From: a virus
Taxonomy: Duplodnaviria > Heunggongvirae > Uroviricota > Caudoviricetes
Strand: one strand, 5' to 3'
IMG/VR virus record: IMGVR_UViG_2534681697_000026
Length of the DNA stretch: 14,190 nt
The notes beneath the pieces were generated by a model. The model saw nothing but the letters and a program-made list of their open reading frames with translations. It searched no databases and had not been told where the DNA came from. Below are positions 1 to 14,190 of this stretch, piece after piece. Both the position numbers and the translations under genes were made by a program. Position 1 is the stretch's first letter. Every line of letters starts with the position of its first letter.

Positions 1-723
1 GCTGTCACGGAAACCGGAAGTGACTGGTACGGCTGGGACGGCGACCGCCTGACCACGATACAGAACGACAGAACCCGCATCCAGACGATTTATCAGCCGG
101 GGAGCTTCACGCCACTCATCAGAGTTGAAACCGCCACCGGTGAGCAGGCGAAAATGCAGCGCCGCAGCCTGGCGGATGCCCTTCAGCAGTCCGGCGGCGA
201 AGACGGTGGTGATGTGGTGTTCCCGCCGGTGCTGGTGCAGATGCTCGACCGGCTGGAAAGTGAAATCCTGGCTGACCGGGTGAGTGAGGAAAGCCGCCGC
301 TGGCTGGCATCGTGCGGCCTGACGGTGGAGCAGATGCAAAACCAGATGGACCCGGTGTACACGCCGGCGCGAAAAATCCACCTGTACCACTGCGACCATC
401 GCGGCCTGCCGCTGGTGCTTATCAGCACGGAAGGGGCAACAGAATGGTGCGCAGAATACGATGAGTGGGGCAACCTGCTGAATGAAGAGAACCCGCATCA
501 GCTGCAGCAGCTTATCCGCCTGCCGGGTCAGCAGTATGATGAGGAGTCCGGCCTGTATTACAACCGCCACCGCTATTATGACCCGCTGCAGGGGCGGTAT
601 ATCACTCAGGATCCGATTGGACTGAAGGGGGGATGGAATTTTTATCAGTATCCGTTGAATCCGGTTCAGTATATAGATTCAATGGGGCTGGCATCTAAAT
701 ATGGACACTTAAATAATGGCTAG
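1..723 (+). CDS. Rhs-family protein, C-terminal part of the core (5' partial at window edge; C-terminal toxin region truncated by IS2)
   Basis: Frame 1 is open from nt 1 ([17 protein letters not shown]...) and runs into the track ORF 154-723. Contains the Rhs core end signature [39 protein letters not shown]. Only 10 codons ([10 protein letters not shown]) follow before a TAG stop supplied by the first 3 nt of IS2. GC-rich compared with the rest of the window. Confidence 0.8.
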
Positions 724-811
724 ACTGGCCCCCTGAATCTCCAGACAACCAGTATCACTTAAATAAGTGATAGTCTTAATACTAGTTTTTAGACTAGTCA
801 TTGGAGTACAG

Positions 812-1177
812 ATGATTGATGTCTTAGGGCCGGAGAAACGCAGACGGCGTACCACACAGGAAAAGATCGCAATTGTTCAGCAGAGCTTTGAACCGGGGAT
901 GACGGTCTCCCTCGTTGCCCGGCAACATGGTGTAGCAGCCAGCCAGTTATTTCTCTGGCGTAAGCAATACCAGGAAGGAAGTCTTACTGCTGTGGCCGCC
1001 GGAGAACAGGTTGTTCCTGCCTCTGAACTTGCTGCCGCCATGAAGCAGATTAAAGAACTCCAGCGCCTGCTCGGCAAGAAAACGATGGAAAATGAACTCC
1101 TCAAAGAAGCCGTTGAATATGGACGGGCAAAAAAGTGGATAGCGCACGCGCCCTTATTGCCCGGGGATGGGGAGTAA
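812..1177 (+). CDS. insC: IS2 transposase OrfA (InsC), helix-turn-helix DNA-binding subunit
   Basis: Translation [41 protein letters not shown]... (121 aa); GGAG Shine-Dalgarno 7 nt upstream of ATG 812. The track ORF start at 767 is an upstream in-frame extension without an RBS. Confidence 0.85.
1129..1135 (+). other. A_AAA_AAG slippery heptamer for programmed -1 ribosomal frameshift (IS2 insC to insD)
   Basis: In the insC frame the codons read gcA AAA AAG tgg (GRAKKW); insD is in the -1 frame and begins at the same position. Classic IS3-family frameshift window. Confidence 0.6.
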
Positions 1178-2040
1178 GCTTAGTCAGCCGTTGTCTCCGG
1201 GTGTCGCGTGCGCAGTTGCACGTCATTCTCAGACGAACCGATGACTGGATGGATGGCCGCCGCAGTCGTCACACTGATGATACGGATGTGCTTCTCCGTA
1301 TACACCATGTTATCGGAGAGCTGCCCACGTATGGTTATCGTCGGGTATGGGCGCTGCTTCGCAGACAGGCAGAACTTGATGGTATGCCTGCGATCAATGC
1401 CAAACGTGTTTACCGGATCATGCGCCAGAATGCGCTGTTGCTTGAGCGAAAACCTGCTGTACCGCCATCGAAACGGGCACATACAGGCAGAGTGGCCGTG
1501 AAAGAAAGCAATCAGCGATGGTGCTCTGACGGGTTCGAGTTCTGCTGTGATAACGGAGAGAGACTGCGTGTCACGTTCGCGCTGGACTGCTGTGATCGTG
1601 AGGCACTGCACTGGGCGGTGACTACCGGCGGCTTCAACAGTGAAACAGTACAGGACGTCATGCTGGGAGCGGTGGAACGCCGCTTCGGCAACGATCTTCC
1701 GTCGTCTCCAGTGGAGTGGCTGACGGATAATGGTTCATGCTACCGGGCTAATGAAACACGCCAGTTCGCCCGGATGTTGGGACTTGAACCGAAGAACACG
1801 GCGGTGCGGAGTCCGGAGAGTAACGGAATAGCAGAGAGCTTCGTGAAAACGATAAAGCGTGACTACATCAGTATCATGCCCAAACCAGACGGGTTAACGG
1901 CAGCAAAGAACCTTGCAGAGGCGTTCGAGCATTATAACGAATGGCATCCGCATAGTGCGCTGGGTTATCGCTCGCCACGGGAATATCTGCGGCAGCGGGC
2001 TTGTAATGGGTTAAGTGATAACAGATGTCTGGAAATATAG
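1135..2040 (+). CDS. insD: IS2 transposase OrfB (InsD), DDE catalytic domain; normally made as an OrfAB fusion by -1 frameshifting
   Basis: 301-aa ORF in the -1 frame relative to insC, overlapping its 3' end; rve/DDE integrase-like sequence (…WCSDGFEF…DNGSCY…[11 protein letters not shown]…). Confidence 0.85.
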
Positions 2041-2127
2041 GGGCAAATCCACATACCGAAATGGTACTATTGAGTATTTATCCAGTAGGTTACGATGCCA
2101 TTCCACCCAACTGGTGAGGCATCAAGG

Positions 2128-2394
2128 ATGTACAGCAAATACGACGAGGCGCAGTTTCACTTGATACTTCCGCATGAACTCCACGCGAAAATTAAACAGC
2201 GTGCGAAGATGAATAACAGATCGCTGAACTCAGAGATAATTGCAGCGATTGAGGAATCATTGGATAAACAAAGCTCTGCATCAGTTTACATTGACGATGC
2301 AGAGCGTATGGCAGAACAACAATCTGATATGGTTAAGAAAATGGTTTTTGAAACGCTTAAGACCATGTATAGCAATAATAAAAAGGAAACATAG
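2128..2394 (+). CDS. mnt: Mnt-like ribbon-helix-helix (Arc/MetJ superfamily) repressor
   Basis: N-terminal RHH motif QFHLILPHELHAKIKQRAKMNNRSLNSEIIAAIEESL; C-terminal DDAERMAEQQSDMVKKMVFETLKTMY resembles the P22 Mnt tetramerisation region (…NDAERLADEQSELVKKMVFDTLKDLY…, from memory). Start chosen at ATG 2128 (GAGG 9 nt upstream) rather than the track start 2095, which has no RBS. Opposite strand to the late genes, as for P22 mnt. Confidence 0.65.
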   Translation: MYSKYDEAQFHLILPHELHAKIKQRAKMNNRSLNSEIIAAIEESLDKQSSASVYIDDAERMAEQQSDMVKKMVFETLKTMYSNNKKET

Positions 2395-2464
2395 AAATCT
2401 AGTTTCCGGCTAAAATGGCATTGCCTTCATGATATCCTGTGAAAAACTAAGGAGAGTTAACCAT

Positions 2465-2689
2465 ATGAAAAAATCACTGTTAATTATCCCGCTTCTGCTG
2501 GTTGGATGCGCAAAAGTAAGTGACTATCAAGCAAGTTGCGAACAACGCTATCAAAAGCTTAGCGATATGGCTAATTGCCTTGATGCCAGTGTGAAGAACG
2601 ACTCACGCATGGCATCAGCACCAACACCTAAGCTGTATGTCCTTGCTGCAAAGATGCTCGGGCAAGGTGTCGATGAAGGCAAGACTTGA
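2465..2689 (+). CDS. small secreted lipoprotein (74 aa precursor)
   Basis: AAGGAG Shine-Dalgarno 9 nt upstream of ATG 2465; signal peptide plus lipobox MKKSLLIIPLLLVG|C; mature part about 55 aa with two further Cys. Track ORF 2429-2689 starts 12 codons earlier without an RBS. Confidence 0.55.
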   Translation: MKKSLLIIPLLLVGCAKVSDYQASCEQRYQKLSDMANCLDASVKNDSRMASAPTPKLYVLAAKMLGQGVDEGKT

Positions 2690-2930
2690 GCTTCAGAATC
2701 TTTATGTTCAATTACAAAGCCAAGAACAAGCCCAACAAATAGCACAAAGCCAAGCATTCCAGCAGGCTTTATTGAATTACCAGGCTGTAAACACAATGCA
2801 AGCGATCGAGCAAAAAGCGCGCCAGCCTGTTATAACTCAACCTTACCCAACACGCGTTGACACATATACAAACTGCAATTCAGGATTTGGAAACACGGTA
2901 ACATGCAACAGTAGCAGTAATATCAGGTAG
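2673..2930 (+). CDS. Gln-rich hypothetical protein (85 aa) with predicted coiled-coil-like N-terminus and Cys/Asn/Thr-rich C-terminus
   Basis: ORF overlapping the lipoprotein 3' end in another frame; AAGG 5 nt upstream of ATG 2673; strongly biased composition (QLQSQEQAQQIAQSQAFQQALLNYQ). Could instead be the continuation of the lipoprotein gene after a frameshift. Confidence 0.4.
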   Translation: MKARLELQNLYVQLQSQEQAQQIAQSQAFQQALLNYQAVNTMQAIEQKARQPVITQPYPTRVDTYTNCNSGFGNTVTCNSSSNIR

Positions 2931-2944
2931 TTATATCTTATCTT

Positions 2945-4792
2945 TTATTGCTGTTCTGCTGTAATTTGGCTTGAAAGTATAGGGCGTATCGCATTTGCAG
3001 CATTATTTAGCGCTCTTTCATAAGCTGGCGTTCCAGTTTTAGTGTTTGCCAGACGTAAGAGAGCATTCCTTGCTGCTTTGGACTCATACAAGCGCATCAT
3101 TGCACCAAAACCAGCCTCAAGCCCCATTGATACGCCAAGGGTCGCAGTTGCGCCAATCGTCCTTATCCTGTTGGCTTGCGATTGCCCCGTCTGAGTTACT
3201 ACATTTGCGGTGTCTGACCTTGCTGTTTGCTGTAGAACTTCATGAAGAGCATCAAGCTCTTTCATGTGCTTTCCAGAAAAAATAGTGTTGTAAATTTCAC
3301 CGCCTGACTGAGATTTCAGCTTATTAACTTCAGTGATGAACTTGGCTGGAGAGTCCCCGGCCTTTTCCGCTATTTTGCTGACGTAAGCTGCACGCATAGC
3401 ATCTTTCCCCTTATCATCCAGTGCGCTCCAGATTCGTTTCACGTCAGATGGTTTTCTGCTTAATACAACGGTATTTATAAGTTCAGGACTGGCTTCACTG
3501 CTTGCCTTGTTGAGCTTGTTAGCAATGTTTTTATTAAGCACCTTATTATAAACGTTTGCATAATCGGAATTTGCTTTAAGGTATTTTGCTGCGTCTGATG
3601 CACCGAGGTTTTTAGCAACTGCGTTACGAAGGTCTTTTGACATTGCATTCTCTACCATATTGGTAGCTGCTTTTGCCTGGTTGGGGAAGACCATAGCATC
3701 TCCCTGAACATTAGATCTAAATGCTGTTCTGTGCTGACGCAAGAGATCAAACGTAACATCCAAATCAGTTGCAGGGTTTGCTAATTCTTCACGTAGGTTA
3801 CGCAAGGATGTAAGCAGGCTTTGATTGGCAGACGTCCCAAGCCGTTCCTGTCTTGCGATCGCTGTATTCAGAGCATTCATGGTATTTGTGGTATCAACTG
3901 CGGCATTACCCATTTTATTGGTGACGTCATTGATAACAGCGCCAGCGGCATCCTTCCGCCCCCTTAACGTGGTGGTCAGAGATTTCACCACATCATCAGG
4001 GTTGTACTCACCAAAACGGTCAAAATAATTACTTACCAGCTTACTACGCGTTGCATATTGCTCCGCTCGCTTTGAGCCTGTCCCGAGCAAAGCCCCCTCG
4101 GCATCCTGAGTAAGGCCGCGAGTGAAAGCATTTTTCGGCGGGATAACATCAGATGTCATTGGTGTCACGCCCATCGATTCTGATGTGGCAATTTTCTTCG
4201 CCACTTCTGGCGCAATATCACCTTTTATAGCCGTTATTCCACGCCCTATTCCCTTTGCTGCTGCGGAAAGAACACCCTGAGCGGCAAGGTTAACTCCGGC
4301 ATTTTTAGCTGCATTTTGTGCGAAATCGCCTTTCTGATTTGCGGCCTCTGCCAGTGATCCAATAGCCATGCTTCCTGCCGTTCCAACTCCTGGAACTAAA
4401 TACCCACCAATTGTTTCACCGGCTTGCGCGTAGGTGTCTGTCGGTCTGTCTACTGGACGATAAACATCATCCAAAACCTTGGGTCCACCAAGCCCCTGAC
4501 TGATTGCATTAATCAGACTTGCGCCGCCCTGCAATACGTCAAATGGTATGTTTACCAGACCACGACCAGCCTGCTCTGCAATTTGCCCTGCACTTTGCCC
4601 GCCTGTGAGCCAATCGCCAGCTTGTTGCATCAATGATGGTTCTTCACGTGCTGGTTCATTATTGGCCTGATTAACTGTTTGTTGCTGAACAGCCTGACCA
4701 GCAAAATACTCATCAATGGCGGTGCCAATATCTTCCATGCTCGTACCATCAGGGAAGGTAAATGTCTTACCGTTTGCAGTTACTTTCATCAT
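2945..4792 (-). CDS. P22 gp16-like ejection (E) protein, 615 aa
   Basis: Last gene of the virion operon, length close to P22 gp16 (609 aa), Ala/Gly/Asn-rich low-complexity composition typical of ejection proteins; start overlaps the stop of the upstream gene by 4 nt (ATGA coupling). Confidence 0.75.
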
Positions 4793-6255
4793 TCCACCGT
4801 AAATTGAATGCCTGATTTTGAGGTATATGATCCGGATTGACTCTGCTGCTGTTGGGTATTTGCCGGTTGTTGGCTATTGCTCTGTTGTTGACTATTTGCA
4901 GCACTTGAAACCACCAAAGCATCATAAACGCGACCAGACTGACCACGTAATGAGTTATATTGGCCCTGCATTTTTCGCATTTTTGTTTCAGTAGCAGCCT
5001 TGGAATCACCGGGCTGAGGCAGGTACATTTTGGAATACTCCTGCATCTCTGGCAGAGTAATTGCTGCACCTGTTTCTGGGCGCAAAATTGCATACAAGGC
5101 GTCTCTCGCATTTACCATATATTGCTGCTCCGCTGGTGATAGGCTTAAATTTGCAATAGTCCCATCACCAAGAGAGCGATTTATTAATGCAACTCGCTTA
5201 GGGTCAATGCTTTTACTAAGCTGATTCATTGAGTCCATTGAATCTTTTAATCGCAAAGCAAATCCTGCCGCCTTCTTGGAACCCTCATTAGCCTTATCTA
5301 TGATGCTTTGCGCTTGTGGCAAGCTAATTGGTTTAATGCCATCACCAGATATAGGTTGGTTTAGTTTTCCGGCTTCCTCGCTGCCATCGGTGTAATACTT
5401 AGTTACCGAGCCATCAGGATTGGTTTCAACCTTAAGTAATTTCTTAGCATTGGGATTAATTCCCGCCGCTGCCGCAAATGCCGCTGCACCATCTGGATCC
5501 GCCTTTAACATTTGCGCGTACTGATTGTAATTCTGCATTGCGGCTGTTGGTGCATATGCTGACGTTAACGCATTTGCTCGGCTAATATCCTGCCCTCTCG
5601 CCTGAAGTGCTTCTCCAGCCTGATTGCTGCGGATTGTCTCTGCCAGTCTGCCTCGGTCAATCTCACGACCAGCCATCTTGTCCTGAACATTGAAGTAATC
5701 AATCGGACCAAGAGCAGCCATTCCAAGGTGATCAACAAACTCACCAAATCCTGAAGGGTTCTGCTGATACATCTGAGCAACGCTGTTAGGGTCAACACCG
5801 ACGCGAGTCAGTTCCTTGGCGTTGTTTTGCAGCCATGATTGCATTGCTTCTGGAGACGATGACGCAAGGCGTGCGCCAGCCGCTAAGGTGCCGATAGAAT
5901 TACGCTGATCTTCATCAATGAATCCCATGCCTTTACGAACGGATTCAATCTGGTCTGGATATTGAGTAGCCAACTGACGCAAAGCACCGCGATCACCAGA
6001 CGCATAAGCATTAGCGTATGCCTGCTGAAATTCTTTCTGCCGCTGAGCCTGCTTTTCCTGCTGAAACCCCCCCGCAATACCTGAAAGGCCTTGCAAAGCA
6101 GTCAGCCCAACATTGTTAGCGCCTGAACGCTCAATATCATTGTTCTGCCTGATAAGCTGAAGCGTATTGCCGATGTCATTTACGCTCGGAGCGTTTGAGT
6201 TGACGCCGCCGATACCAGCCAACAATCCGCCATTTGATCCTTGCCAAGTAGCCAT
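4789..6255 (-). CDS. P22 gp20-like ejection (E) protein, 488 aa
   Basis: Position between gp7 and gp16 homologs, size close to P22 gp20 (471 aa); AAGGGG RBS 8 nt upstream; Gln/Ala-rich. Confidence 0.75.
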
Positions 6256-6264
6256 GATTACCCC

Positions 6265-6418
6265 TTAAAACAACGAACCAAGCAATCCGATACCAGCACC
6301 AATGCCAGCGCCCCAAGGTGTTGATGTTCCCAAAAGGCTGGCAAGACCTGCACCGGCAATCGCACCAGACGTTCCGCCACTAATTGCAGTCTGAAGACTT
6401 GATGGTTTATTGGCATTA
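6265..6418 (-). pseudogene. 3' fragment of P22 gp7-like ejection protein gene, separated from its 5' part by an IS insertion
   Basis: Reverse-strand frame reads (A)NANKPSSLQTAISGGTSGAIAGAGLASLLGTSTPWGAGIGAGIGLLGSLF-stop, in frame with the 5' fragment when the IS and one TA are removed; stop lies 9 nt upstream of the gp20 start. Confidence 0.7.
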
Positions 6419-6429
6419 GGCTGTGTCCC

Positions 6430-6945
6430 TTAATTACGTAAGCGTTGATAAAAGAGTCGGATGCAGCCCAGTTTCACCATCGCCAGGTAATTTCTCGCCG
6501 TTTTGTCGTAACGCGTGGCGATGCGGCGATATTCTTTCAGCCGCCCAAAGCACCGTTCAACGACATTACGATTGCAGTACGCATCACGATCAAGCTGTGC
6601 ACGTCCATCCGATGCCATTTTCTCATTTGACTTTCGGGGGATTACTGCCTTTATACCGTTATTTTTCAGCTCGTTGCGCAATGCGCACCCTGAATACGCT
6701 TTATCAGCCAGTACCGCATGTCCACGGCGTTTCATGCTGCCGTTCTGACGCTGAACGCCAATCCCGTCCAGAAGTCGTTGCGCGAACTGGCTTTCATGAG
6801 CTTGTCCGGGGCTTAGCACGATATTTAACGGGAGGCCACTTCCGTCTGTTGCCAGATGGATTTTGGTGCCAAAACCGCCGCGAGAGCGACCCAGCCCATT
6901 ATCTCCGTCGATATCGGGATGTTTTTTTGAGCACCGGCGGCACAT
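6430..6945 (-). CDS. IS5-family transposase OrfB (DDE catalytic part), accessed by -1 frameshift from OrfA
   Basis: Acidic/conserved motifs DIDGDNG, LADKAYSG and NVVERCFGRLKEYRRIATRYDK, consistent with a DDE transposase; overlaps orfA in the -1 frame across an A7C run (plus-strand gtttttttgag at about 6921-6931). Confidence 0.8.
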   Translation of the reverse strand: MCRRCSKKHPDIDGDNGLGRSRGGFGTKIHLATDGSGLPLNIVLSPGQAHESQFAQRLLDGIGVQRQNGSMKRRGHAVLADKAYSGCALRNELKNNGIKAVIPRKSNEKMASDGRAQLDRDAYCNRNVVERCFGRLKEYRRIATRYDKTARNYLAMVKLGCIRLFYQRLRN

Positions 6946-7274
6946 TTCAGCGCCCGGATATTACTGCCATCCAGCGCGGTGGCAGACCAGTCAATAAAGC
7001 CGTTTGCATCAAGTAGCGAAAGCAACCTGTTGAAAATAATATTAATCACGCCTGACTTTGACCATCGGTTAAAGCGGTTATAAACAGTTTTCCATGACCC
7101 ATATCGTTCGGGTAAATCGCGCCATGGTGCACCGGAACATAACACCCAGAACATGCCATTGATGATTTTACGGTGCTCAGCCCATGGGCGTCCGGCCCGT
7201 GGTGTGGCGGGTTCAGGAGGTAACAGGGGCTTGATGATGGTCCATGCCTCATCGGGAAGGTCGTAGCGAGCCAT
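6825..7274 (-). CDS. IS5-family transposase OrfA (N-terminal DNA-binding part)
   Basis: MARYDLPDEAWTIIKPLLPP… N-terminus typical of two-ORF IS5-family transposases; starts 60 nt inside the IS end. Confidence 0.8.
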   Translation of the reverse strand: MARYDLPDEAWTIIKPLLPPEPATPRAGRPWAEHRKIINGMFWVLCSGAPWRDLPERYGSWKTVYNRFNRWSKSGVINIIFNRLLSLLDANGFIDWSATALDGSNIRALKCAAGAQKNIPISTEIMGWVALAAVLAPKSIWQQTEVASR

Positions 7275-7334
7275 AGTTCAATATGTTGTGTAAACAGACA
7301 GTTACTATAGCTCAGATGATTAAGGGACACAGCC

Positions 7335-7872
7335 TAGCAGCGGCAAGAGCTGCGCTTTGCTGTGCAATGCTGCTCATGTTGTTGGCGTACGTCTGCCCGG
7401 CGTTTGCCTGACCTTGAAGTGCACCAAGCCCAACGTTTGCCAGATTGTTGTAATTGCTCATCTGGTTTGATAACCAAGACTGACCGAGAGTAGGCGCGAT
7501 CGTAGCCAGTTGATTGCTTGTGGCTGTCGAACCAAGTCCACCCGTCGCCTCCGCAGCAGCAAGACTCTGGTAACGAGCCTGACCTGCAAGGTCTTTATAC
7601 TGCTGAGAGTTGTAATACTGATTAAGTGCCTGCCCCTGACCTTCTAAACTGGAAAGGTTCTGAAGCTGGTTAACATACTGCTCCGCAAGAGGCGTGAACG
7701 GAGCAAGGTTTTTCATGATCGTCTGCCACTGCTGATTTTGCAGGTCTGCGGCATACTTCTGAGCTTCTGCTGCATACTTTGCGCTTTTATCGGAGCCACC
7801 TTTCCCGCCTTTTTCAGGGCAATAAGGTTCCTCGCCGCGCAGTTTTCTGCCCAGCTTAAATGCATATAACAT
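7335..7872 (-). pseudogene. 5' fragment of P22 gp7-like ejection protein gene, interrupted by IS copy A
   Basis: N-terminus MLYAFKLGRKLRGEEPYCPEKGGKGG… in the position expected for gp7, immediately downstream of gp14; the track ORF 7312-7872 reads through into the IS end and stops there. With the 3' fragment it reconstitutes 229 codons. Confidence 0.75.
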
Positions 7873-7874
7873 AG

Positions 7875-8333
7875 CTATCTCCCGTGATTCAGGAAGTCGA
7901 TTAGTTCTTCGCGTGTGGCGCTGTAAAACGTCACGTCATCCACGCCTTTAAAGTATTTCTTGATGGTTCCGACACGCTTAAGGCCAATCATTGCGCAGTA
8001 CATCTGCCCGTGGCGGAATTTGCGTGCAGCGAACGATGTGACACACTGAACGGTGGTGTTAGTCAGAATGTATCGCCAGAACGCCAGCCCGATTTCCTTG
8101 CTGAAGCCGCGAATCTCTGGCAGGTACATGGCGTGGCAATCGAATGTCAGCGGCTGAATCTCCTGATAGTAAACAATGCCGCCGAACTGCCCATGCACGT
8201 TAACCTCAAAGTAACGGCATTCAGGCTTGTAGTCGTATCCATCGCCGTTGTTGCTCCCGGCGATAATGTCAGGGTGATTTCCTACTGCTTCGATCAGGTC
8301 GATGTTTCGCGTTGGTTTGAACTGAATCATCAC
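7875..8333 (-). CDS. P22 gp14-like protein (assigned by position), 152 aa
   Basis: Sits between the tail needle and gp7 homologs with 4-nt ATGA overlaps on both sides, as in the P22 virion operon; I cannot confirm the sequence itself from memory. Confidence 0.55.
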
Positions 8334-9178
8334 TGCTCCGCGATTATCTTGATGGTTGTGGCAGTAAACGCCGCACCATTTGACTGAATGGTTAACGTGC
8401 TGCCATTTGTGACAAGAAAGCCGTCTTTATCCACGCTGAAGAACGTAGCTAACAAGATGTTATCGGTTGTTGTCGCCGCATTACGACTGCTGACCAACGT
8501 GTCAGGAACAGAGCCGGAAAAGGTTAGCTGCATTGACCTGTTTGCGGTTCCACTGGGCCACGTCCCGACAATCGACAACTTGAAGAACAAGGTTTTGTTC
8601 TCGTTGAACACAACCATCTTGTTGTTAACGGTGTCGAAGAATGGTGCCAACGAGCCGGATGACGGCGTGAGCGTTTTCAGCAGGCTAACAAGGTTAGTCG
8701 GCGCTGTCGGGATGGTTACAGATACGCCAGAGTAAACAACCTCTGACTTCTTGCGAGTAGTGGCATACTCCAGAGCATCGATGCGCGTTTCATGGTCTGA
8801 AAGCGTGTTTTGAATGGCGACAACTTCATCAGTCAGATAATCAATATCGTTTTCTGCTGTCGTTAATCGCGAATCAAGGCCGACTATCGCTGCTTCTGCG
8901 TTAGTGATCCTTGTTTCGTGGTCCTGTATCTTCGCTTCAGCTGATGCCAGTCGAATTTCGTGATCAACCAGAATCACATCCTGCTCATCGTTCCTTACCT
9001 GCGCGTCATAAGCGCCCTGTCCGGACTCGTTGGCCTTATTCACCACGTTACCAACATCAGTACCCTGTGCGATAACGTAAAGCAGATACGACTGCGAGAA
9101 GATATTGCGTGGAAGGATTGATGTATCGAGCCGCGTCGCCTGAACAATAACAGGTGTATTGAGATTCGAATCCGCCAT
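8330..9178 (-). CDS. tail needle protein (P22 gp26 family) with an extended C-terminal domain, 282 aa
   Basis: N-terminal [43 protein letters not shown]… matches the conserved gp26 N-terminal region followed by coiled-coil heptads; C-terminal about 130 aa is Thr/Ser/Asn-rich and unlike the short P22 tip. Confidence 0.8.
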
Positions 9179-10596
9179 TACTCAATCCTTATCTGAGTGC
9201 CAGACAGAGTGACAGGTGACTTCGTGATAATGCGCAATTTGAAGCCGACATTTTTCCTGATGCGCCCTACTCGCTTCCACAAAACGCGTTTGTCGTAAAC
9301 GAACGGTTCATTCTGCTCAATCATCTGCTCACGTCCGTAATTGATGCCGTCAGTGGTTGCAGAGAGGAACAGGCGGTCGGCGTACTGAGCTACGCCAGTG
9401 GATGATTCCACCTCCAGATCGAAGCATCTGGCGTTATCCGCTTTGAACAACGGAGTAAACAGCAGGTGTTCCTGCTGCTTGTCGTACTGGCTGCTGATAT
9501 CGAACTGCAGTTTCCCGGTCACGGATTCCAGCTTATCGCCGCACGTTATCTGATTGCCTTCGTAAATGAAGTCGATAGCGCGGTACACATCGTCATACAG
9601 GCCTGTTTTCAGCACACACCATTGCGGACCATTGGCGCTTGAAGATGCATCGTACACAAGGACGTGACGCGGAAGATGGATAATCAGCAACTCATGCGCA
9701 TCAAATCGCAGAGACTCCATCACACCATCAGCCAGTTCATCAGCAGTGTAGGAGCGAAGTATTTTCTCAATGCTCGCGCTGGCGATTGGTGATACCTGAC
9801 CGGAACCGATGATGTACACAGACGGCGCACCCGTTGCCGGGTTGCTGATGAAAGCATAGGAATCAGCAAACGGCGTTTTGCAGTAAGTCCCGGCGATGCC
9901 TTTTTGCACCATCAATGATGGCTGGGCGACATACAAAGCAGCACCAACGGTGGTTGCACCAGTCAGGGAGAAATATTCAATCGTCGATGAACCAAAGCAG
10001 ACGATGAAGTCTCGCCATGTCCCTATGCCGATGATGCCATCAGGCTGAGATTCTGCGCGATATTGTGCGCTGTATCGGTCAGGATGTGATTCGTCTTCAA
10101 GGTCAGTGATAAACCATGAATCAGTACCGTCTTTTGACCACGCATAACGCCCACGTAAGCGCGTAATGTCACGAACCGAACCTAGCTCATACTGAGTGAA
10201 TCCGCTATCTGTAGGCCAGTTTGAGACGGTTTTAATCGTGCCATCATAGCGATACTCGACCAGTTGACCATTAACACCTATCGCCTGAGATGTACGACCA
10301 TGCGCCATTGATACGCGACCACTTCCGGCGACGTCACCGACTTCACTTTCTCCTTTGTACAGCTTGCCACCACACACACGATAAACAGCATTCTGCGCCA
10401 TGTTGTACTCGACGCCGCGAGATACACCGTTCACATCAGAGCGTTTGGCAATGCCAGGGAATGAGCGAAGATATCCGCTGCTGTTCAGGATTTCTTTGGG
10501 TGTAGCCAGCATATTCACTGGCAGATAGTCGATATAGTCGGCGTTTCGAAAGTCTTTGCCGACACCTTTCATAAGCGGAAGTTGCTGAATAGGCAT
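9178..10596 (-). CDS. P22 gp10-like tail accessory (portal-closure/tail hub) protein, 472 aa
   Basis: Same length as P22 gp10 and correct position between gp4 and gp26; stop overlaps the tail needle start (ATGA). Confidence 0.85.
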
Positions 10597-10604
10597 TTAT
10601 TCAC

Positions 10605-11087
10605 CTATGAATTTGGGATATCGCCATCAATCAGAGGGAGATCGCCTGGATAATATCGGTCAGATGTGAACACGTCATATTTATTACCCTGTCCTACAGG
10701 AAAATCTCCACGTCGTCGCATTGAAGGAACAACCAGAGTGTCGGTCATCAAGGCATCATATGAGCGTTGGGCGTTACTGAGAACTTGCGGAGTTGGCTCA
10801 AGGCTGTAATCAGATAGCATTCTCAGCAATAACTGATAGCCTACTGCGTGTTTGTATTTTCTTGGAAGACCTGACTCATCATCTGGTAATGGCTGCTCAT
10901 CTCCAGTTGCGAAAGCGTAACCAATGTCGCCGGGGTTAATCATCCACTCGGACATCATATCTTCCAGATCATTTACACCATCTTCAATTGATTGCGGCTC
11001 AACATCAGTCAGCGATGCATTAGAAGCAATAGCAAACTTACGAAGCGCAAAAAGGACGATCTCACCCTTTGTCAGTACTGTTGCCAT
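10605..11087 (-). CDS. P22 gp4-like head-to-tail adaptor / tail accessory protein, 160 aa
   Basis: N-terminal [42 protein letters not shown] resembles P22 gp4 (…[34 protein letters not shown]…, from memory); first gene after the coat-like gene. Confidence 0.85.
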   Translation of the reverse strand: [160 protein letters not shown]

Positions 11088-11247
11088 TGTCTGCCGCCTT
11101 ACGACCTCGCTTACTGGTCGGTTTCAATTCATCAACTGAGGCAACAAAGCCCAACTTTTCGAAAAACTGGAAGTCTTTTTCTGCGATAACGGCCTGTACA
11201 TGCCCGGATTCGTTATCTGCGGCAAGGAATACACTCATGCGATCCAT
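11062..11247 (-). CDS. hypothetical small protein (61 aa) between coat-like gene and gp4
   Basis: Good RBS (TAAGGAAACAAT-ATG) directly after the coat-gene terminator; overlaps the gp4 start by 26 nt in another frame. No recognisable motif. Confidence 0.3.
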   Translation of the reverse strand: MDRMSVFLAADNESGHVQAVIAEKDFQFFEKLGFVASVDELKPTSKRGRKAADNGNSTDKG

Positions 11248-11257
11248 ATTGTTTCCT

Positions 11258-11284
11258 TAAAACATAAAAGGGGCGTAAGCCCCT
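11258..11284 (-). terminator. rho-independent terminator/attenuator hairpin after the coat-like gene
   Basis: Minus-strand sense: GGGGC-ttac-GCCCC followed by TTTTATGTTTT, starting 6 nt after the coat-like gene stop. Confidence 0.55.
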
Positions 11285-11289
11285 TGTTA

Positions 11290-12306
11290 TTACGGATTAC
11301 CGAAGAACTGACCGCCCATGTGAGGGTTAAAGCACACATATGCAGGCAGTAAGTCAAAGCGCATTTTTTGCACGTTGGCATCGCCATCTGCGTATTTATG
11401 TACGCGGATGGAGAAACCTTCATATGTTGCAACAGCAGAATCAATACTGTGCAGTTTCGGCAGTGGGATAGAGCCAAGTCCACAGAAGAACTTGTTATAG
11501 AACAGGTTTGGCTTCATTGTCTGGCTAGCAGTGCCTACTACAGATACGGCATCGTTTGCCGCTACCTGACGACTTACAGAGTTGTACTGCGGGTTTGTAG
11601 TGTCATAAATCGGAACACCAGAAAGCGTAACCGTCACATTGCCACTGCTGTCTGAATTAGCATCAGCAGTAACCGTTGCAGTGAAGCTAATTGGTGTGGC
11701 TCCGTTATACAACGCCTGTTTGGTCTGCTGTTGCAGCCAGTAGGTATTGGTGAATTTAACCTGATCACCAGCTTTCAGAAAACCTGTAACGCTGGCTGTC
11801 GCTCCGGTCAATGTTACAGTGAACTGGTATGAGTCTTTAACTGCGTTATAGGTAACAGTTGGCTGTGTTTTGACTGTCAGTGTTCCGCCAAATGCCCCCT
11901 GCGTACGAGAGGCAAGCCCATTAGACATCAGTGCGCGAATGCCGCCAAAATTGGTTGGGATCTGTGCATTCTCCCATGCAGTACGAACCAATTGATCTGA
12001 AGCGTGCAAACCAGTCTGCGCATCAGCAAGTCGCTGTGCAGACCATGGATCCATTACAGCATAGTTTTCACCTTCATTAACGCCGAGGTCTTTCAGGAAA
12101 GATGCCGTCTGCGCAACATCAGACCATTTGGTGATTGGAGTATTGGGGCTACCAAGTGACAACGCACCGTTATTCATCATGAAGTGAGCAAGCTCTGTTT
12201 CAAGGTCGGTAACGATTCGCTGGCGAACCGGCGCGAGAATTTCTTCCAGTTGGTTAAGCTTGATCGCTTCCTCCAGTTGCTGATATTCAACAACAACAGT
12301 GATGTA
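11290..12306 (-). pseudogene. major capsid (coat) protein-like gene with Ig/telokin-like insertion, 5' end disrupted by IS copy B
   Basis: Track ORF 11290-12180 (296 aa) has no RBS at its Met, and the frame stays open for 42 more codons upstream, right up to the IS boundary. Position immediately upstream of gp4; C-terminal part has beta-rich Thr/Val repeats and a layout reminiscent of the P22 coat C-terminal half. Confidence 0.5.
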
Positions 12307-12366
12307 GGCTGTGTCCCTTAATCATCTGAGCTATAGTAACTGTCTGTTTACACAACATATTGAACT

Positions 12367-12816
12367 ATGGCTCGCTACGACCTTCCCGATGAGGCATGGA
12401 CCATCATCAAGCCCCTGTTACCTCCTGAACCCGCCACACCACGGGCCGGACGCCCATGGGCTGAGCACCGTAAAATCATAAATGGCATGTTCTGGGTGTT
12501 ATGTTCCGGTGCACCATGGCGCGATTTACCCGAACGATATGGGTCATGGAAAACTGTTTATAACCGCTTTAACCGATGGTCAAAGTCAGGCGTGATTAAT
12601 ATTATTTTCAACAGGTTGCTTTCGCTACTTGATGCAAACGGCTTTATTGACTGGTCTGCCACCGCGCTGGATGGCAGTAATATCCGGGCGCTGAAATGTG
12701 CCGCCGGTGCTCAAAAAAACATCCCGATATCGACGGAGATAATGGGCTGGGTCGCTCTCGCGGCGGTTTTGGCACCAAAATCCATCTGGCAACAGACGGA
12801 AGTGGCCTCCCGTTAA
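12367..12816 (+). CDS. IS5-family transposase OrfA
   Basis: Identical 149-aa product to copy A orfA. Confidence 0.8.
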   Translation: MARYDLPDEAWTIIKPLLPPEPATPRAGRPWAEHRKIINGMFWVLCSGAPWRDLPERYGSWKTVYNRFNRWSKSGVINIIFNRLLSLLDANGFIDWSATALDGSNIRALKCAAGAQKNIPISTEIMGWVALAAVLAPKSIWQQTEVASR

Positions 12817-13211
12817 ATATCGTGCTAAGCCCCGGACAAGCTCATGAAAGCCAGTTCGCGCAACGACTTCTGGACGGGATTGGCGTTCAGCGTCAGAACG
12901 GCAGCATGAAACGCCGTGGACATGCGGTACTGGCTGATAAAGCGTATTCAGGGCGCGCATTGCGCAACGAGCTGAAAAATAACGGTATAAAGGCAGTAAT
13001 CCCCCGAAAGTCAAATGAGAAAATGGCATCGGATGGACGTGCACAGCTTGATCGTGATGCGTACCGCAATCGTAATGTCGTTGAACGGTGCTTTGGGCGG
13101 CTGAAAGAATATCGCCGCATCGCCACGCGTTACGACAAAACGGCGAGAAATTACCTGGCGATGGTGAAACTGGGCTGCATCCGACTCTTTTATCAACGCT
13201 TACGTAATTAA
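12696..13211 (+). CDS. IS5-family transposase OrfB (DDE domain)
   Basis: 171-aa product, 2 aa different from copy A orfB; -1 frame relative to orfA. Confidence 0.8.
   Translation: MCRRCSKKHPDIDGDNGLGRSRGGFGTKIHLATDGSGLPLNIVLSPGQAHESQFAQRLLDGIGVQRQNGSMKRRGHAVLADKAYSGRALRNELKNNGIKAVIPRKSNEKMASDGRAQLDRDAYRNRNVVERCFGRLKEYRRIATRYDKTARNYLAMVKLGCIRLFYQRLRN
12714..12720 (+). other. A_AAA_AAC slippery heptamer, predicted programmed -1 frameshift site joining OrfA and OrfB
   Basis: orfA frame reads gcT CAA AAA AAC atc; shifting -1 at the A7 run gives …AQKK-HPDIDGDNG… and a fusion transposase of about 280 aa. Confidence 0.55.
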
Positions 13212-13348
13212 GGGACACAGCCTAGATGCCGCTATCAGATCCTCCACTTTGAAAGCGAAGCTTATACATATCTTTTACATCAGCAATCTATTGTTAATCT
13301 CCAATCAATGTTACGTTGTCATCTCACTCATGCTTTGGAGGTAGTGAT

Positions 13349-13528
13349 ATGTCTTGTCCAAAATGCGGTTCTGGAAATATTGCAAAAGAAAAAACAATGC
13401 GTGAATGGTCTGGTGATTATGTGTGCTGCGATTGCGGATACAACGACTCTAAAGACGCATTTGGAGAGCTTGGTAAAAACGAGTTTGTCAAAATTAATAA
13501 AGAACGCGAAGGCAACGAAAAAAGCTAA
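13349..13528 (+). CDS. small zinc-ribbon protein (59 aa), CxxC…CxxC
   Basis: GGAGG Shine-Dalgarno 7 nt upstream of ATG 13349; MSCPKCGSGNIAKEKTMREWSGDYVCCDCGY has two Cys pairs; Lys/Glu-rich tail. The track start at 13316 lacks an RBS. Confidence 0.5.
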   Translation: MSCPKCGSGNIAKEKTMREWSGDYVCCDCGYNDSKDAFGELGKNEFVKINKEREGNEKS

Positions 13529-13593
13529 TTTATTTATTCATATATGAAAACAATGTAACCAATATTCGAATTGAAGAACTGAAAGAACACCAA

Positions 13594-13616
13594 GCCGCCT
13601 GATGGCGGTTTTTTTA
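13594..13616 (+). terminator. rho-independent terminator
   Basis: CCGCC-tgat-GGCGG stem-loop followed by TTTTTTTT. Confidence 0.5.
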
Positions 13617-13629
13617 TTTGGGGTAGTAG

Positions 13630-13845
13630 ATGGCTGCAATTCACATTGTATCAATAACATGCAATGCAATTCAGATAGTTGCTTGCATTATCTTTGTTTT
13701 CTCAATCCTTCGCTCCCGACGATATTCTCCAGCAATTAACCGACATCCTGCACAGGTTGAAGCCGTCAGGATGGCTATAGAGTTACGAAATGAGATGAGT
13801 AAGGCATTACTGGAGATGGGGAAACCATTCACTGACAAACATTAA
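13630..13845 (+). CDS. hypothetical small protein (71 aa) with hydrophobic N-terminal segment
   Basis: ORF begins just after the upstream terminator with GGGG 6 nt before the ATG; N-terminal IVSITCNAIQIVACIIFVFSIL could be a transmembrane helix. No recognisable family. Confidence 0.3.
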   Translation: MAAIHIVSITCNAIQIVACIIFVFSILRSRRYSPAINRHPAQVEAVRMAIELRNEMSKALLEMGKPFTDKH

Positions 13846-13922
13846 GAGTGTAAATAAAGAAATCACACCGCCTCACACTCGATGAGGTATTTTCATTTAT
13901 CAAGATATCCAGACCTACCATC

Positions 13923-13945
13923 GCCGCATCAATGCGGTTTTTTTA
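13923..13945 (+). terminator. rho-independent terminator
   Basis: CCGCA-tcaa-TGCGG stem-loop followed by TTTTTTT, about 75 nt after the stop of the 71-aa ORF. Confidence 0.5.
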
Positions 13946-13989
13946 TTACCTGATTTGCAGGTTCGATTCCATATTCGGAGATAGCACTC

Positions 13990-14190
13990 ATGCAACACGA
14001 ACTACAACCTGATTCACTGGTTGATTTGAAATTCATCATGGCTGATACTGGCTTTGGTAAAACCTTCATCTATGACCGGATTAAGTCCGGCGACCTGCCA
14101 AAAGCCAAAGTTATCCACGGGCGAGCAAGATGGTTATATCGTGACCATTGTGAATTCAAAAATAAGCTCTTAAGCCGCGCCAATGGGTAA
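13990..14190 (+). CDS. AlpA/Vis-type prophage regulatory protein (small HTH regulator/excisionase-like), 66 aa
   Basis: LKFIMADTGFGKTFIYDRIKSGDLPKAKVIHGRARWLYRDHCEF fits the AlpA family pattern (L..TG.s.sTIYr.i..G.FPkp.k.G.r..W); GGAGA RBS; complete ORF ending at the window edge. Confidence 0.65.
   Translation: MQHELQPDSLVDLKFIMADTGFGKTFIYDRIKSGDLPKAKVIHGRARWLYRDHCEFKNKLLSRANG

Follow-up and report, generated by a model that had tools for sequence, protein, structure and literature searches.

The locus raises the question of why tail-plug and ejection genes stand in full-length frames beside a truncated coat gene, with the packaging genes missing. The window (the whole 14,190-nt stretch that was analysed) matches the terminal part of draft contig AERN01000049.1 of assembly GCA_000193915.2 at 100% identity, starting 2 nt from the contig end, and this assembly is that of Shigella boydii ATCC 9905 (PMC6397287). 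We consider it very probable that the window carries what remains of the late operon of a temperate, Sf6-like phage (P22-like, Lederbergvirus type), located at tRNA-argW/dsdC of S. boydii and recently inactivated by insertion sequences.

Profile searches (Pfam E-values 1e-53 to 1e-300) placed late genes on the minus strand from 2945 to 12306 in the P22 late-operon order: truncated coat, a 61-codon ORF, gp4, gp10, an Sf6-type knobbed needle, gp14, an IS-split gp7, gp20 and gp16. The coat remnant (11290..12306; PF11651, 2.7e-99) comprises in-frame codons 87–423 of 423, the 5′ 86 codons having been cut away at an IS junction; its ATG-initiated ORF aligns to profile positions 124–423. Between coat and gp4 lie two features additional to those listed in the first-pass annotation, both on the minus strand: a terminator-like stem-loop (11268..11285) at the position of the annotated Sf6 't coat', and the intact 61-codon ORF (orf61; 11062..11247; phrog_3251, 2e-43), a homologue of Sf6 gene 6 and HK620 HKbT. 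There follow gp4, the head–tail adaptor (160 aa; 10605..11087; PF11650, 3e-74), gp10, the tail hub/plug protein (472 aa; 9178..10596; PF11134, 1e-300), and the tail needle, a gp26 homologue with an Sf6-type knob (282 aa; 8330..9178; PF16532, 1e-107, spanning residues 109–282), all intact and contiguous. The gp14 homologue (DUF2824; 151 aa; 7875..8330; PF11039, 6e-53), the gp20-type ejection protein (488 aa; 4789..6255; PF16928, 8e-77) and the gp16-type ejection (DNA transfer) protein (614/615 aa; 2945..4792; phrog_770, 6e-278) are also intact, and a gene identical to this gp16 matches PF26808. The gp7 ejection protein gene, between gp14 and gp20, is in two pieces, an N-terminal part of ∼179 codons (7335..7872; PF25688, 1e-106, profile positions 1–180 of 230) and a C-terminal part of ∼50 codons plus stop (6265..6418), the latter identified by reconstruction without 6419–7336. 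The 186-aa gp7 ORF as listed (7337–7872) runs into IS sequence.

Each gene named in the first-pass annotation was thus found at its coordinates with a very strong family match, and the sizes of 160, 472, 282, 151–152, 488 and 614–615 aa were confirmed, as was a restored gp7 of 229 aa. The HMM matches of these genes are to P22-type families. The proposed ATGA-type coupling at four junctions holds only loosely: ATGATG is present at gp20/gp16, GTGATG at gp26/gp14 and TAATG (a 1-nt overlap) at gp10/gp26, orf61 and gp4 overlap by 26 nt, and gaps of 2–9 nt separate gp4/gp10, gp14/gp7 and gp7/gp20. The label P22-like is right for the family, but the sizes and sequences are closer to Sf6-like prophages than to P22 itself.

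Sf6 (NC_005344; Lederbergvirus Sf6) has the same gene order from coat through the gp16 homologue (genes 5–13) and the same placement of the 't coat' stem-loop. Its coat, gp4, gp10, gp14, gp7 and orf61 proteins are 98.5–100% identical to those of the window, with values of 99.4% for gp4 (Sf6 gp7), 98.5% for gp10 (Sf6 gp8), 99.3% for gp14 (Sf6 gp10) and 100% for orf61 (gene 6); the coat remnant is 98.5–99.1% identical over 337 aa to the coats of Sf6 and E. coli prophages. In contrast, Sf6 gp13 is only 34% identical to the gp16 homologue, and the gp20 homologues share 64%, both being mosaic replacements. The needle knob is of the same type (∼3 residue differences across residues 140–282), whereas the Sf6 shaft is another allele, the divergence being confined to coiled-coil residues ∼71–126; the allele in the window is found at ∼96% nucleotide identity in many E. 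coli prophages. Such swapping of needle shafts and ejection proteins is known among P22-like phages (PMC3741392, PMC10883804). Unlike Sf6, the locus has an IS-split gp7 and an IS-truncated coat, and has lost scaffold, portal, terminase, and early and lysis functions.

Most proteins are also 98–100% identical to those of the Sf6-like tRNA-argW prophages of E. coli O104:H4 (e.g. NZ_CP027394) and O26:H11 (11368), the exceptions being the known mosaic segments (needle shaft, gp20 and gp16). For the O104:H4 prophage, gp16 (99.5%), gp20 (99.2%), gp7 and coat are 99–100% identical and equal in size, save for gp7 (230 versus 229 aa). These prophages and that of E. coli 90-1 are bounded by intS and torI, a neighbourhood that the window shares at its torI end. 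Their complete-looking virion modules have the gene order of the window, and lipoprotein and mnt genes come after gp16, as they do here. They differ from it in retaining full coat, scaffold, portal, terminase and tailspike genes and in having neither the ISSfl7 insertions nor the 20-bp lipoprotein deletion described below; those of O104:H4 and 90-1 are damaged at other places, by IS1 and by IS911/ISKpn26.

The element that splits gp7 is a 916-bp ISSfl7-like member of the IS5 family (6419..7334, minus strand; PF13340 and PF01609, NF033580), with 99.2–99.8% identity to annotated ISSfl7-family elements. Two overlapping frames encode its DDE transposase, its ends carry the terminal inverted repeats GGCTGTGTCCC/GGGACACAGCC with TA flanks, and TA is duplicated at its TTAG target, in keeping with the NTAG targets of the family. 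Removal of 918 bp (the IS and one TA copy) restores exactly a 229-aa gp7 that agrees with the O104:H4 protein at every one of 229 aligned positions, the latter being longer by one codon. A second copy (12307..13222, plus strand) is inverted relative to the first and 100% identical to it (inverted repeat of 920 nt), implying that transposition or recombination was recent. On one side of it lies coat codon 87, on the other a CTAG site close to where the early-left operon ends; in the O104:H4 prophage the two flanks map to the coat gene and the pyrophosphohydrolase/Eag region. Everything between is gone, namely the coat 5′ end and the scaffold, portal, both terminase subunit, lysis, late-regulator, replication and immunity genes. 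Upstream of the coat, as first annotated, small and large terminase, portal and scaffold were not found in the window; only ISSfl7 and torI-proximal early-left genes are there. The locus is a remnant of the P22-like family rather than a complete member, and the two IS-disrupted genes of the first-pass annotation are indeed the split gp7 and the truncated coat.

Draft assemblies may collapse or be mis-joined at IS repeats, and the lack of head, packaging and tailspike genes could be such an artefact, with an intact prophage in the true genome. The window does come from the extreme end of a draft contig, its left junction lacks an expected IS duplication (see below), and two contigs of other assemblies stop exactly at ISSfl7 copies. 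However, the finished chromosome CP026875.1 matches the window from 720 to 14190 in structure, with 2 SNPs (99.985% identity over 13,471 bp), and has the same coat′::ISSfl7::early-left junction, gp7::ISSfl7 insertion and 20-bp deletion; a single nucleotide differs in the phage genes (gp20 G63V in this sister genome). Mis-assembly of the deletion is thereby ruled out, the artefact idea is left with the 720/721 junction alone, and as an account of the whole locus we regard it as extremely improbable.

The two inverted, 100% identical IS copies enclose a 4,968-bp segment (gp7′-gp14-needle-gp10-gp4-orf61-coat′) in a geometry like that of Tn5 or Tn10, and the segment might be read as a composite transposon or invertible unit. 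Alternatively, it might act as an allele reservoir for Sf6-like phages, for homologous exchange with circulating phages is physically possible where gene blocks are 92–99% identical, and mosaic exchange of the needle shafts and ejection proteins has precedent (PMC3741392, PMC10883804). Against a mobile unit, the segment lies in its ancestral orientation and position with gp7 colinear across the IS, no copy flanked in this way was found in 72,556 plasmids or 5,426 E. coli genomes, and any two nearby IS copies would give the same geometry by chance. Both versions of this explanation seem to us hardly credible.

To the right of the second IS copy is the distal end of an early-left operon (13225..14190, plus strand), which matches the O104:H4 and 90-1 argW prophages at their torI-proximal ends with 93.8–98% nucleotide identity. 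It holds an ORF with weak Lar/zinc-ribbon matches (13349–13528), a 71-codon ORF (13630–13845) and the excisionase gene torI (13990–14190). With torI the window ends; in the sister genome dsdC/X/A come next, as in E. coli argW prophages, the argW/intS side being outside both the window and the sister sequence compared. The element is assigned to the Sf6 subgroup and, by its right flank, probably lies at the argW–dsdC site. The same site in E. coli K-12 is occupied by KplE1 (CPS-53), a defective prophage with IntS and TorI that retains torI at its dsdC-proximal end and has a different, much smaller gene set; it is not known to carry a P22-type virion module. The likeness, by description, is that of a decayed prophage at one chromosomal site. 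Again by description, a further parallel is EC4113-1 of E. coli O157:H7, a defective prophage that is a small P22-like remnant with an Sf6-type needle gene; it is an independent remnant at another stage of decay, and a precedent for the persistence of P22-like late-operon fragments with a knobbed needle gene in Escherichia and Shigella chromosomes (PMC3741392).

At the left, gp16 is followed by a lipoprotein moron (2465..2930, plus strand), a pseudogene by DNA alignment with three intact homologues; in O104:H4 the gene is annotated as coding for a lipoprotein of 161 aa. Loss of 20 bp between direct repeats of AGGCAAGA, at ∼2676, shifts its frame and makes it a third damaged gene beyond the two first noted. 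Beyond it is an intact Mnt/Arc-family repressor gene of the immI region (88 aa; 2128..2394, plus strand; PF03869 Arc, 1e-12; PF11423 Repressor_Mnt, 4e-12), whose product is 93–98% identical to its 90-1 and O26 homologues. The mnt–tailspike intergenic region is occupied by a 1331-bp IS2 (721..2051, plus strand) with TnpA at 812–1177 (NF006928, 4e-83) and TnpB at 1135–2040 (NF006918, 1e-219), and 1..720 on the plus strand is the C-terminal end of an RHS core protein ORF (NF041261 RHS_core positions 1084–1261, E = 1e-105; PF03527), which is outside the prophage. A tailspike with a P22-type head-binding domain is not present in the window, where IS2 and then Rhs stand in its place. Its reported absence is true of the window but not of the sister genome, in which the tailspike gene starts ∼50 bp past IS2 and ∼383 codons remain; a 392-aa ORF (PF09008 Head_binding) just past IS2 is itself cut by a third ISSfl7. 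The IS2 target duplication, CATAC, is perfect in the sister genome, whereas the IS2 flanks in the window are ATGGC and CATAC. The lack of a duplication at the Rhs–IS2 junction points to a rearrangement or an assembly chimera. The missing tailspike is explained by the junction that IS2 forms at the contig end rather than by a simple loss, and this left end goes beyond simple decay, requiring an IS2-mediated rearrangement or an assembly error; for the 720/721 junction, a true IS2 × IS2 rearrangement and a chimera are roughly equally probable.

HMM matches, together with 98–100% protein identity to intact Sf6-like prophages, bear out the first-pass description, a defective prophage remnant in which gp4, gp10, the needle, gp20 and gp16 keep intact frames; gp14 can be added to these. 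The full length of seven adjacent ORFs could mean that the host has domesticated the module, keeping tail-plug and ejection proteins (gp4, gp10, needle, gp14, gp20 and gp16) under selection, for example to hinder superinfection by P22-like phages or to serve as a bacteriocin-like device. The private substitutions of the remnant are mostly synonymous (43.5 synonymous and 9.5 nonsynonymous, pN/pS 0.07, leaving out the mosaic needle shaft), as such selection would have it. This value is far from neutral (p = 1e-18), but it is not different from that of live-phage lineages (Fisher p = 0.38), so the divergence is older than the inactivation and was followed by no long neutral phase. The hint of ongoing selection in the first-pass annotation is therefore not upheld; the substitutions fit recent inactivation instead. 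A random point change in the intact ORFs (6.7 kb) would give a stop in only ∼4% of cases, so few stops are expected and the absence of further disruptions fits a young remnant. There was no excess of sigma-70-like promoters (15 found versus 17.6 expected). Domestication is also hard to reconcile with a split gene for the essential ejection protein gp7, a truncated coat, the deletion of the late promoter and antiterminator region, and a frameshift in the lipoprotein moron, which belongs to the only class of gene that tends to be retained for the benefit of the host. Finally, the exact gp7::IS product is on only 5 contigs of the public collection, implying one small clone, and the two carriers 2 SNPs apart in 13.5 kb have had too little time for visible selection. 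Although weak selection would formally fit seven intact ORFs in a row, recency explains their integrity and selection is not needed; we judge domestication highly improbable.

The favoured history, which no observation directly contradicts, is then one in which an Sf6-like phage integrated at tRNA-argW/dsdC of the S. boydii chromosome and was inactivated recently through the IS expansion typical of Shigella. As the sequence shows directly, an ISSfl7-like IS entered gp7 at TTAG with duplication of TA, a second identical copy now bridges coat codon 87 and the early-left CTAG with loss of the intervening genes, IS2 inserted between mnt and the tailspike gene, and a slippage deletion of 20 bp put the lipoprotein gene out of frame. 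The large deletion probably arose by recombination between two ISSfl7 copies in the same orientation, or as an IS-adjacent deletion. Since the deletion took away the late promoter and its antiterminator gene, gp4, gp10, needle, gp14, gp20, gp16 and orf61 would be transcriptionally orphaned, barring read-through from IS or host promoters, and would survive only for want of time for neutral mutations. Lysis, replication and immunity modules are missing and three genes (gp7, coat and lipoprotein) are disrupted, which leaves the gene set of a functional prophage incomplete; the element is predicted to be unable to make particles.

IS-wrecked remnants of this sort are already well known, and the finding is in that respect an ordinary one. 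We give very little credence to the idea that the tail-plug/ejection block, lying between or beside active, identical ISSfl7 copies, is a usable genetic resource rather than inert junk, whether as an allele donor or as an IS-bounded mobile or invertible unit. Needle-shaft, gp20 or gp16 alleles might in that case be donated to superinfecting Sf6-like phages by homologous recombination. If true, such donation or IS-bounded movement would affect phage host range or exclusion in S. boydii.

Between 2945 and 12180 the ORF map gives an uninterrupted run of minus-strand frames, each of which was matched by profile searches to a P22 virion family: coat (PF11651, 2.7e-99), gp4 (PF11650, 3e-74), gp10 (PF11134, 1e-300), a needle with an Sf6-type knob (PF16532, 1e-107), gp14 (PF11039, 6e-53), gp7 (PF25688, 1e-106, over profile positions 1-180 of 230 only), gp20 (PF16928, 8e-77) and gp16 (phrog_770, 6e-278). 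A 61-codon frame between coat and gp4, orf61 (11062-11247; phrog_3251, 2e-43), is the homologue of Sf6 gene 6/HKbT, and the hairpin at 11268-11285 is the counterpart of the stem-loop annotated as 't coat' in Sf6. The family matches are far above chance and the gene order is the canonical P22 late-operon order; the first-pass annotation, which had observed this module and interpreted it as a defective P22-like prophage remnant, was thus essentially correct. Its list of intact genes holds for the genes named, with orf61 and gp14, both intact too, to be added. The ATGA-type coupling that it described at four junctions resolves into three start/stop overlaps and one 26-nt overlap, the literal ATGA occurring at one junction only.

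Protein identities were determined gene by gene between the window and four relatives, Sf6 and three E. coli prophages. Identity to Sf6 and the E. coli prophages is 98.5-99.1% for coat, with values of 98-99% for gp4, 98-98.5% for gp10, 99% for gp14, 99-100% for gp7 and 98-100% for orf61. The gp16 protein is 99.5% identical to that of the O104:H4 prophage and 34% to that of Sf6, gp20 is 99.2% identical to O104:H4 and 61-77% to the other relatives, and the needle is 84% identical to all four. The needle differences sit in coiled-coil residues about 71-126 (window 8803-8957), the knob being nearly identical. The shaft allele differs from those of Sf6, O104:H4 and O26 while the N-terminal domain is near-identical, giving a sharp mosaic boundary within the gene. 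Needle decay, considered on account of the 84% identity to Sf6, was rejected: the shaft allele has been swapped, and many E. coli prophages whose needle gene is annotated as intact share it at ~96% nucleotide identity. Mosaic variation of P22-like ejection proteins and needle shafts is documented (PMC10883804; PMC3741392), and small P22-like remnants keeping an Sf6-type needle gene are on record (PMC3741392). Given these identities and precedents, the element is an Sf6-subgroup P22-like prophage remnant, in no respect unusual and of a kind already known. The closely related argW prophage of E. coli O104:H4 (NZ_CP027394, 2011 outbreak lineage) is itself defective, with IS1 in place of the lysis-to-immunity region (26462-27364 of the fetched locus, L001) and a virion module that looks complete.

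The two genes reported as IS-disrupted are indeed so, and the elements of the window can now be named as ISSfl7-like and IS2. A 920-nt inverted repeat, 100% identical, pairs 6417-7336 with 12305-13224. Each ISSfl7-like copy (copy 1, 6419-7334, in gp7; copy 2, 12307-13222, at the coat remnant) belongs to the IS5 family and measures 916 bp; it encodes its transposase in two frames that overlap (PF13340 and PF01609; NF033580), ends in the inverted repeats GGCTGTGTCCC/GGGACACAGCC, has TA at either side, and is 99.2-99.8% identical to elements annotated by RefSeq as ISSfl7 family. Copy 1 is a simple insertion; removal of 6419-7336 from gp7 gives a 229-aa protein that equals gp7 of the O104:H4 prophage at 229/229 aligned residues and is one codon shorter. 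Copy 2 sits between coat codon 87 and sequence whose place in intact relatives is close to the end of the early-left operon that faces torI, and therefore everything from the coat 5' end through the immunity region is missing, including the genes for scaffold, portal and the two terminase subunits and the regions for lysis, late control and replication. The flanks keep no record of the route of this deletion, since NTAG targeting and TA duplication are constant features of the element; recombination between two copies in the same orientation could have produced it as readily as a deletion adjacent to an IS.

The two identical, inverted copies enclose 4,968 bp of phage genes. This IS-bracketed geometry is that of a composite transposon, but there is no evidence of mobility, and we consider a role for the block as a composite transposon or allele reservoir highly unlikely. 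A plasmid search with the 4,968-bp IS-bounded unit matched gene sets of P22-like phages or prophages. In related strains, draft assemblies split into ~5-kb contigs exactly at the ISSfl7-like copies (contigs L005 and L006).

The earlier list of disrupted genes had omitted a lipoprotein pseudogene (2465-2930), which lies between gp16 and mnt and is frameshifted by a 20-bp deletion at ~2676 bounded by 8-bp direct repeats AGGCAAGA. In the O104:H4, O26 and 90-1 prophages of E. coli the gene is whole, at 161 aa; in the window it is broken. Its place matches the P22 sieA region. The Mnt/Arc-family gene (2128-2394) is intact, with IS2 (721-2051, 1331 bp; NF006928, NF006918) just upstream of it. At the other end of the window, two similar terminator-like sites (GC hairpin plus T-run, GCCGC...GCGGTTTTTTTATT) at 13592-13618 and 13923-13947 stand 329 bp apart, either side of a 71-codon ORF upstream of torI.

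The window is 100% identical to AERN01000049.1 (GCA_000193915.2), beginning 2 nt from the contig end; the assembly is listed as Shigella boydii ATCC 9905 (PMC6397287). Over window 720-14190 the finished chromosome CP026875.1 (GCA_002950355.1) aligns without gaps and with 2 mismatches, and for this reason the truncation of coat, the large deletion, the insertion in gp7 and the lipoprotein-gene deletion are genuine. That the structure is an assembly artefact is refuted everywhere but at the 720/721 junction, leaving this a very improbable explanation. The sole differences over the 13,471 bp are at positions 6068, nonsynonymous in gp20 (G63V in the sister, the window retaining the ancestral G), and 12480, within ISSfl7 copy 2. 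Downstream of torI, CP026875.1 carries dsdC, dsdX and dsdA, the same neighbourhood as in the tRNA-argW Sf6-like prophages of E. coli O104:H4, O26:H11 and 90-1; the remnant is more exactly Sf6-like and probably lies at the argW site. Genes for the gp7::IS fusion protein are present on five public contigs. An exact-match scan of species-representative genome contigs gave no gp7/ISSfl7 junction, so the host species is evidently without a carrier of the insertion among those representatives, and no record among 5,426 complete E. coli genomes covered at least 80% of the window, which places its source outside that set.

The IS2 of CP026875.1 has a perfect duplication of 5 bp, CATAC, at its flanks, and a tailspike ORF (Head_binding, PF09008) begins ~50 bp past the element. 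At 17203-19276 of the sister locus (L003), a third ISSfl7 copy cuts this ORF (392 aa as called), leaving ~383 of its native codons, and an oac-like acyltransferase gene comes next. The sister remnant carries three ISSfl7 copies and one IS2 in ~15 kb (about 4.6-19.3 kb of L003). In the window, the sequence on the far side of IS2 is the C-terminal part of an RHS core frame, without the duplication (ATGGC versus CATAC), and the Rhs-IS2 hybrid junction is located where the draft contig ends. Either ATCC 9905 has undergone a genuine IS2 x IS2 rearrangement here or the join is chimeric, and the reported absence of a tailspike therefore describes the window and not necessarily the element. A look-up of the 189-aa Rhs ORF returned the window's own contig only, which is not diagnostic for the junction since an Rhs of full length would be predicted as another protein.

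Codon alignments of the window with three E. coli prophages and Sf6 were used to count lineage-private substitutions. With the swapped needle shaft left out, the private changes of the window are 43.5 synonymous to 9.5 nonsynonymous (pN/pS 0.07), indistinguishable from the 139 and 22 of live or complete lineages (Fisher p=0.38) and incompatible with neutrality (p=1e-18). It follows that the divergence built up in a still functional phage; the private substitutions show no sign of a long post-inactivation period, and equally none of selection after inactivation. The two genomes of the remnant-bearing clone differ at one phage-gene nucleotide, the nonsynonymous gp20 change in the sister strain. 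Only ~4% of point changes falling at random in the intact ORFs (6.7 kb) would make a stop codon, and the observed lack of further disruptions is as expected of a young remnant, to which the 100% identity of the two ISSfl7-like copies likewise points. Neutral decay was also considered for the coat remnant, in which all 4 private nucleotide changes are nonsynonymous, with none synonymous, and affect no more than 3 codons (A90V, D308N, G336N); it was set aside, as the changes are too few to interpret and two of the three codons lie in a stretch polymorphic among live phages.

Passive, recent IS-driven decay of an Sf6-like prophage is very probably the explanation. Judging from P22/Sf6 genome organisation, the late genes that remain would have lost their promoter and antiterminator to the deletion; a promoter scan of the window gave no enrichment. 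Domestication of the genes by the host is hard to credit, given the breaks in gp7, in coat and in the lipoprotein moron and the tiny size and youth of the carrier clone. Prophage finders should tag the locus as an Sf6-like remnant, probably at argW, and the left Rhs-IS2 junction of the window calls for caution as a possible rearrangement or chimera of the assembly. The locus has little significance beyond annotation, and is a clean, datable example of Shigella IS expansion (ISSfl7-like, IS2) taking a prophage apart, which also shows that selection need not be invoked for runs of intact phage ORFs in a remnant whose inactivation is recent.
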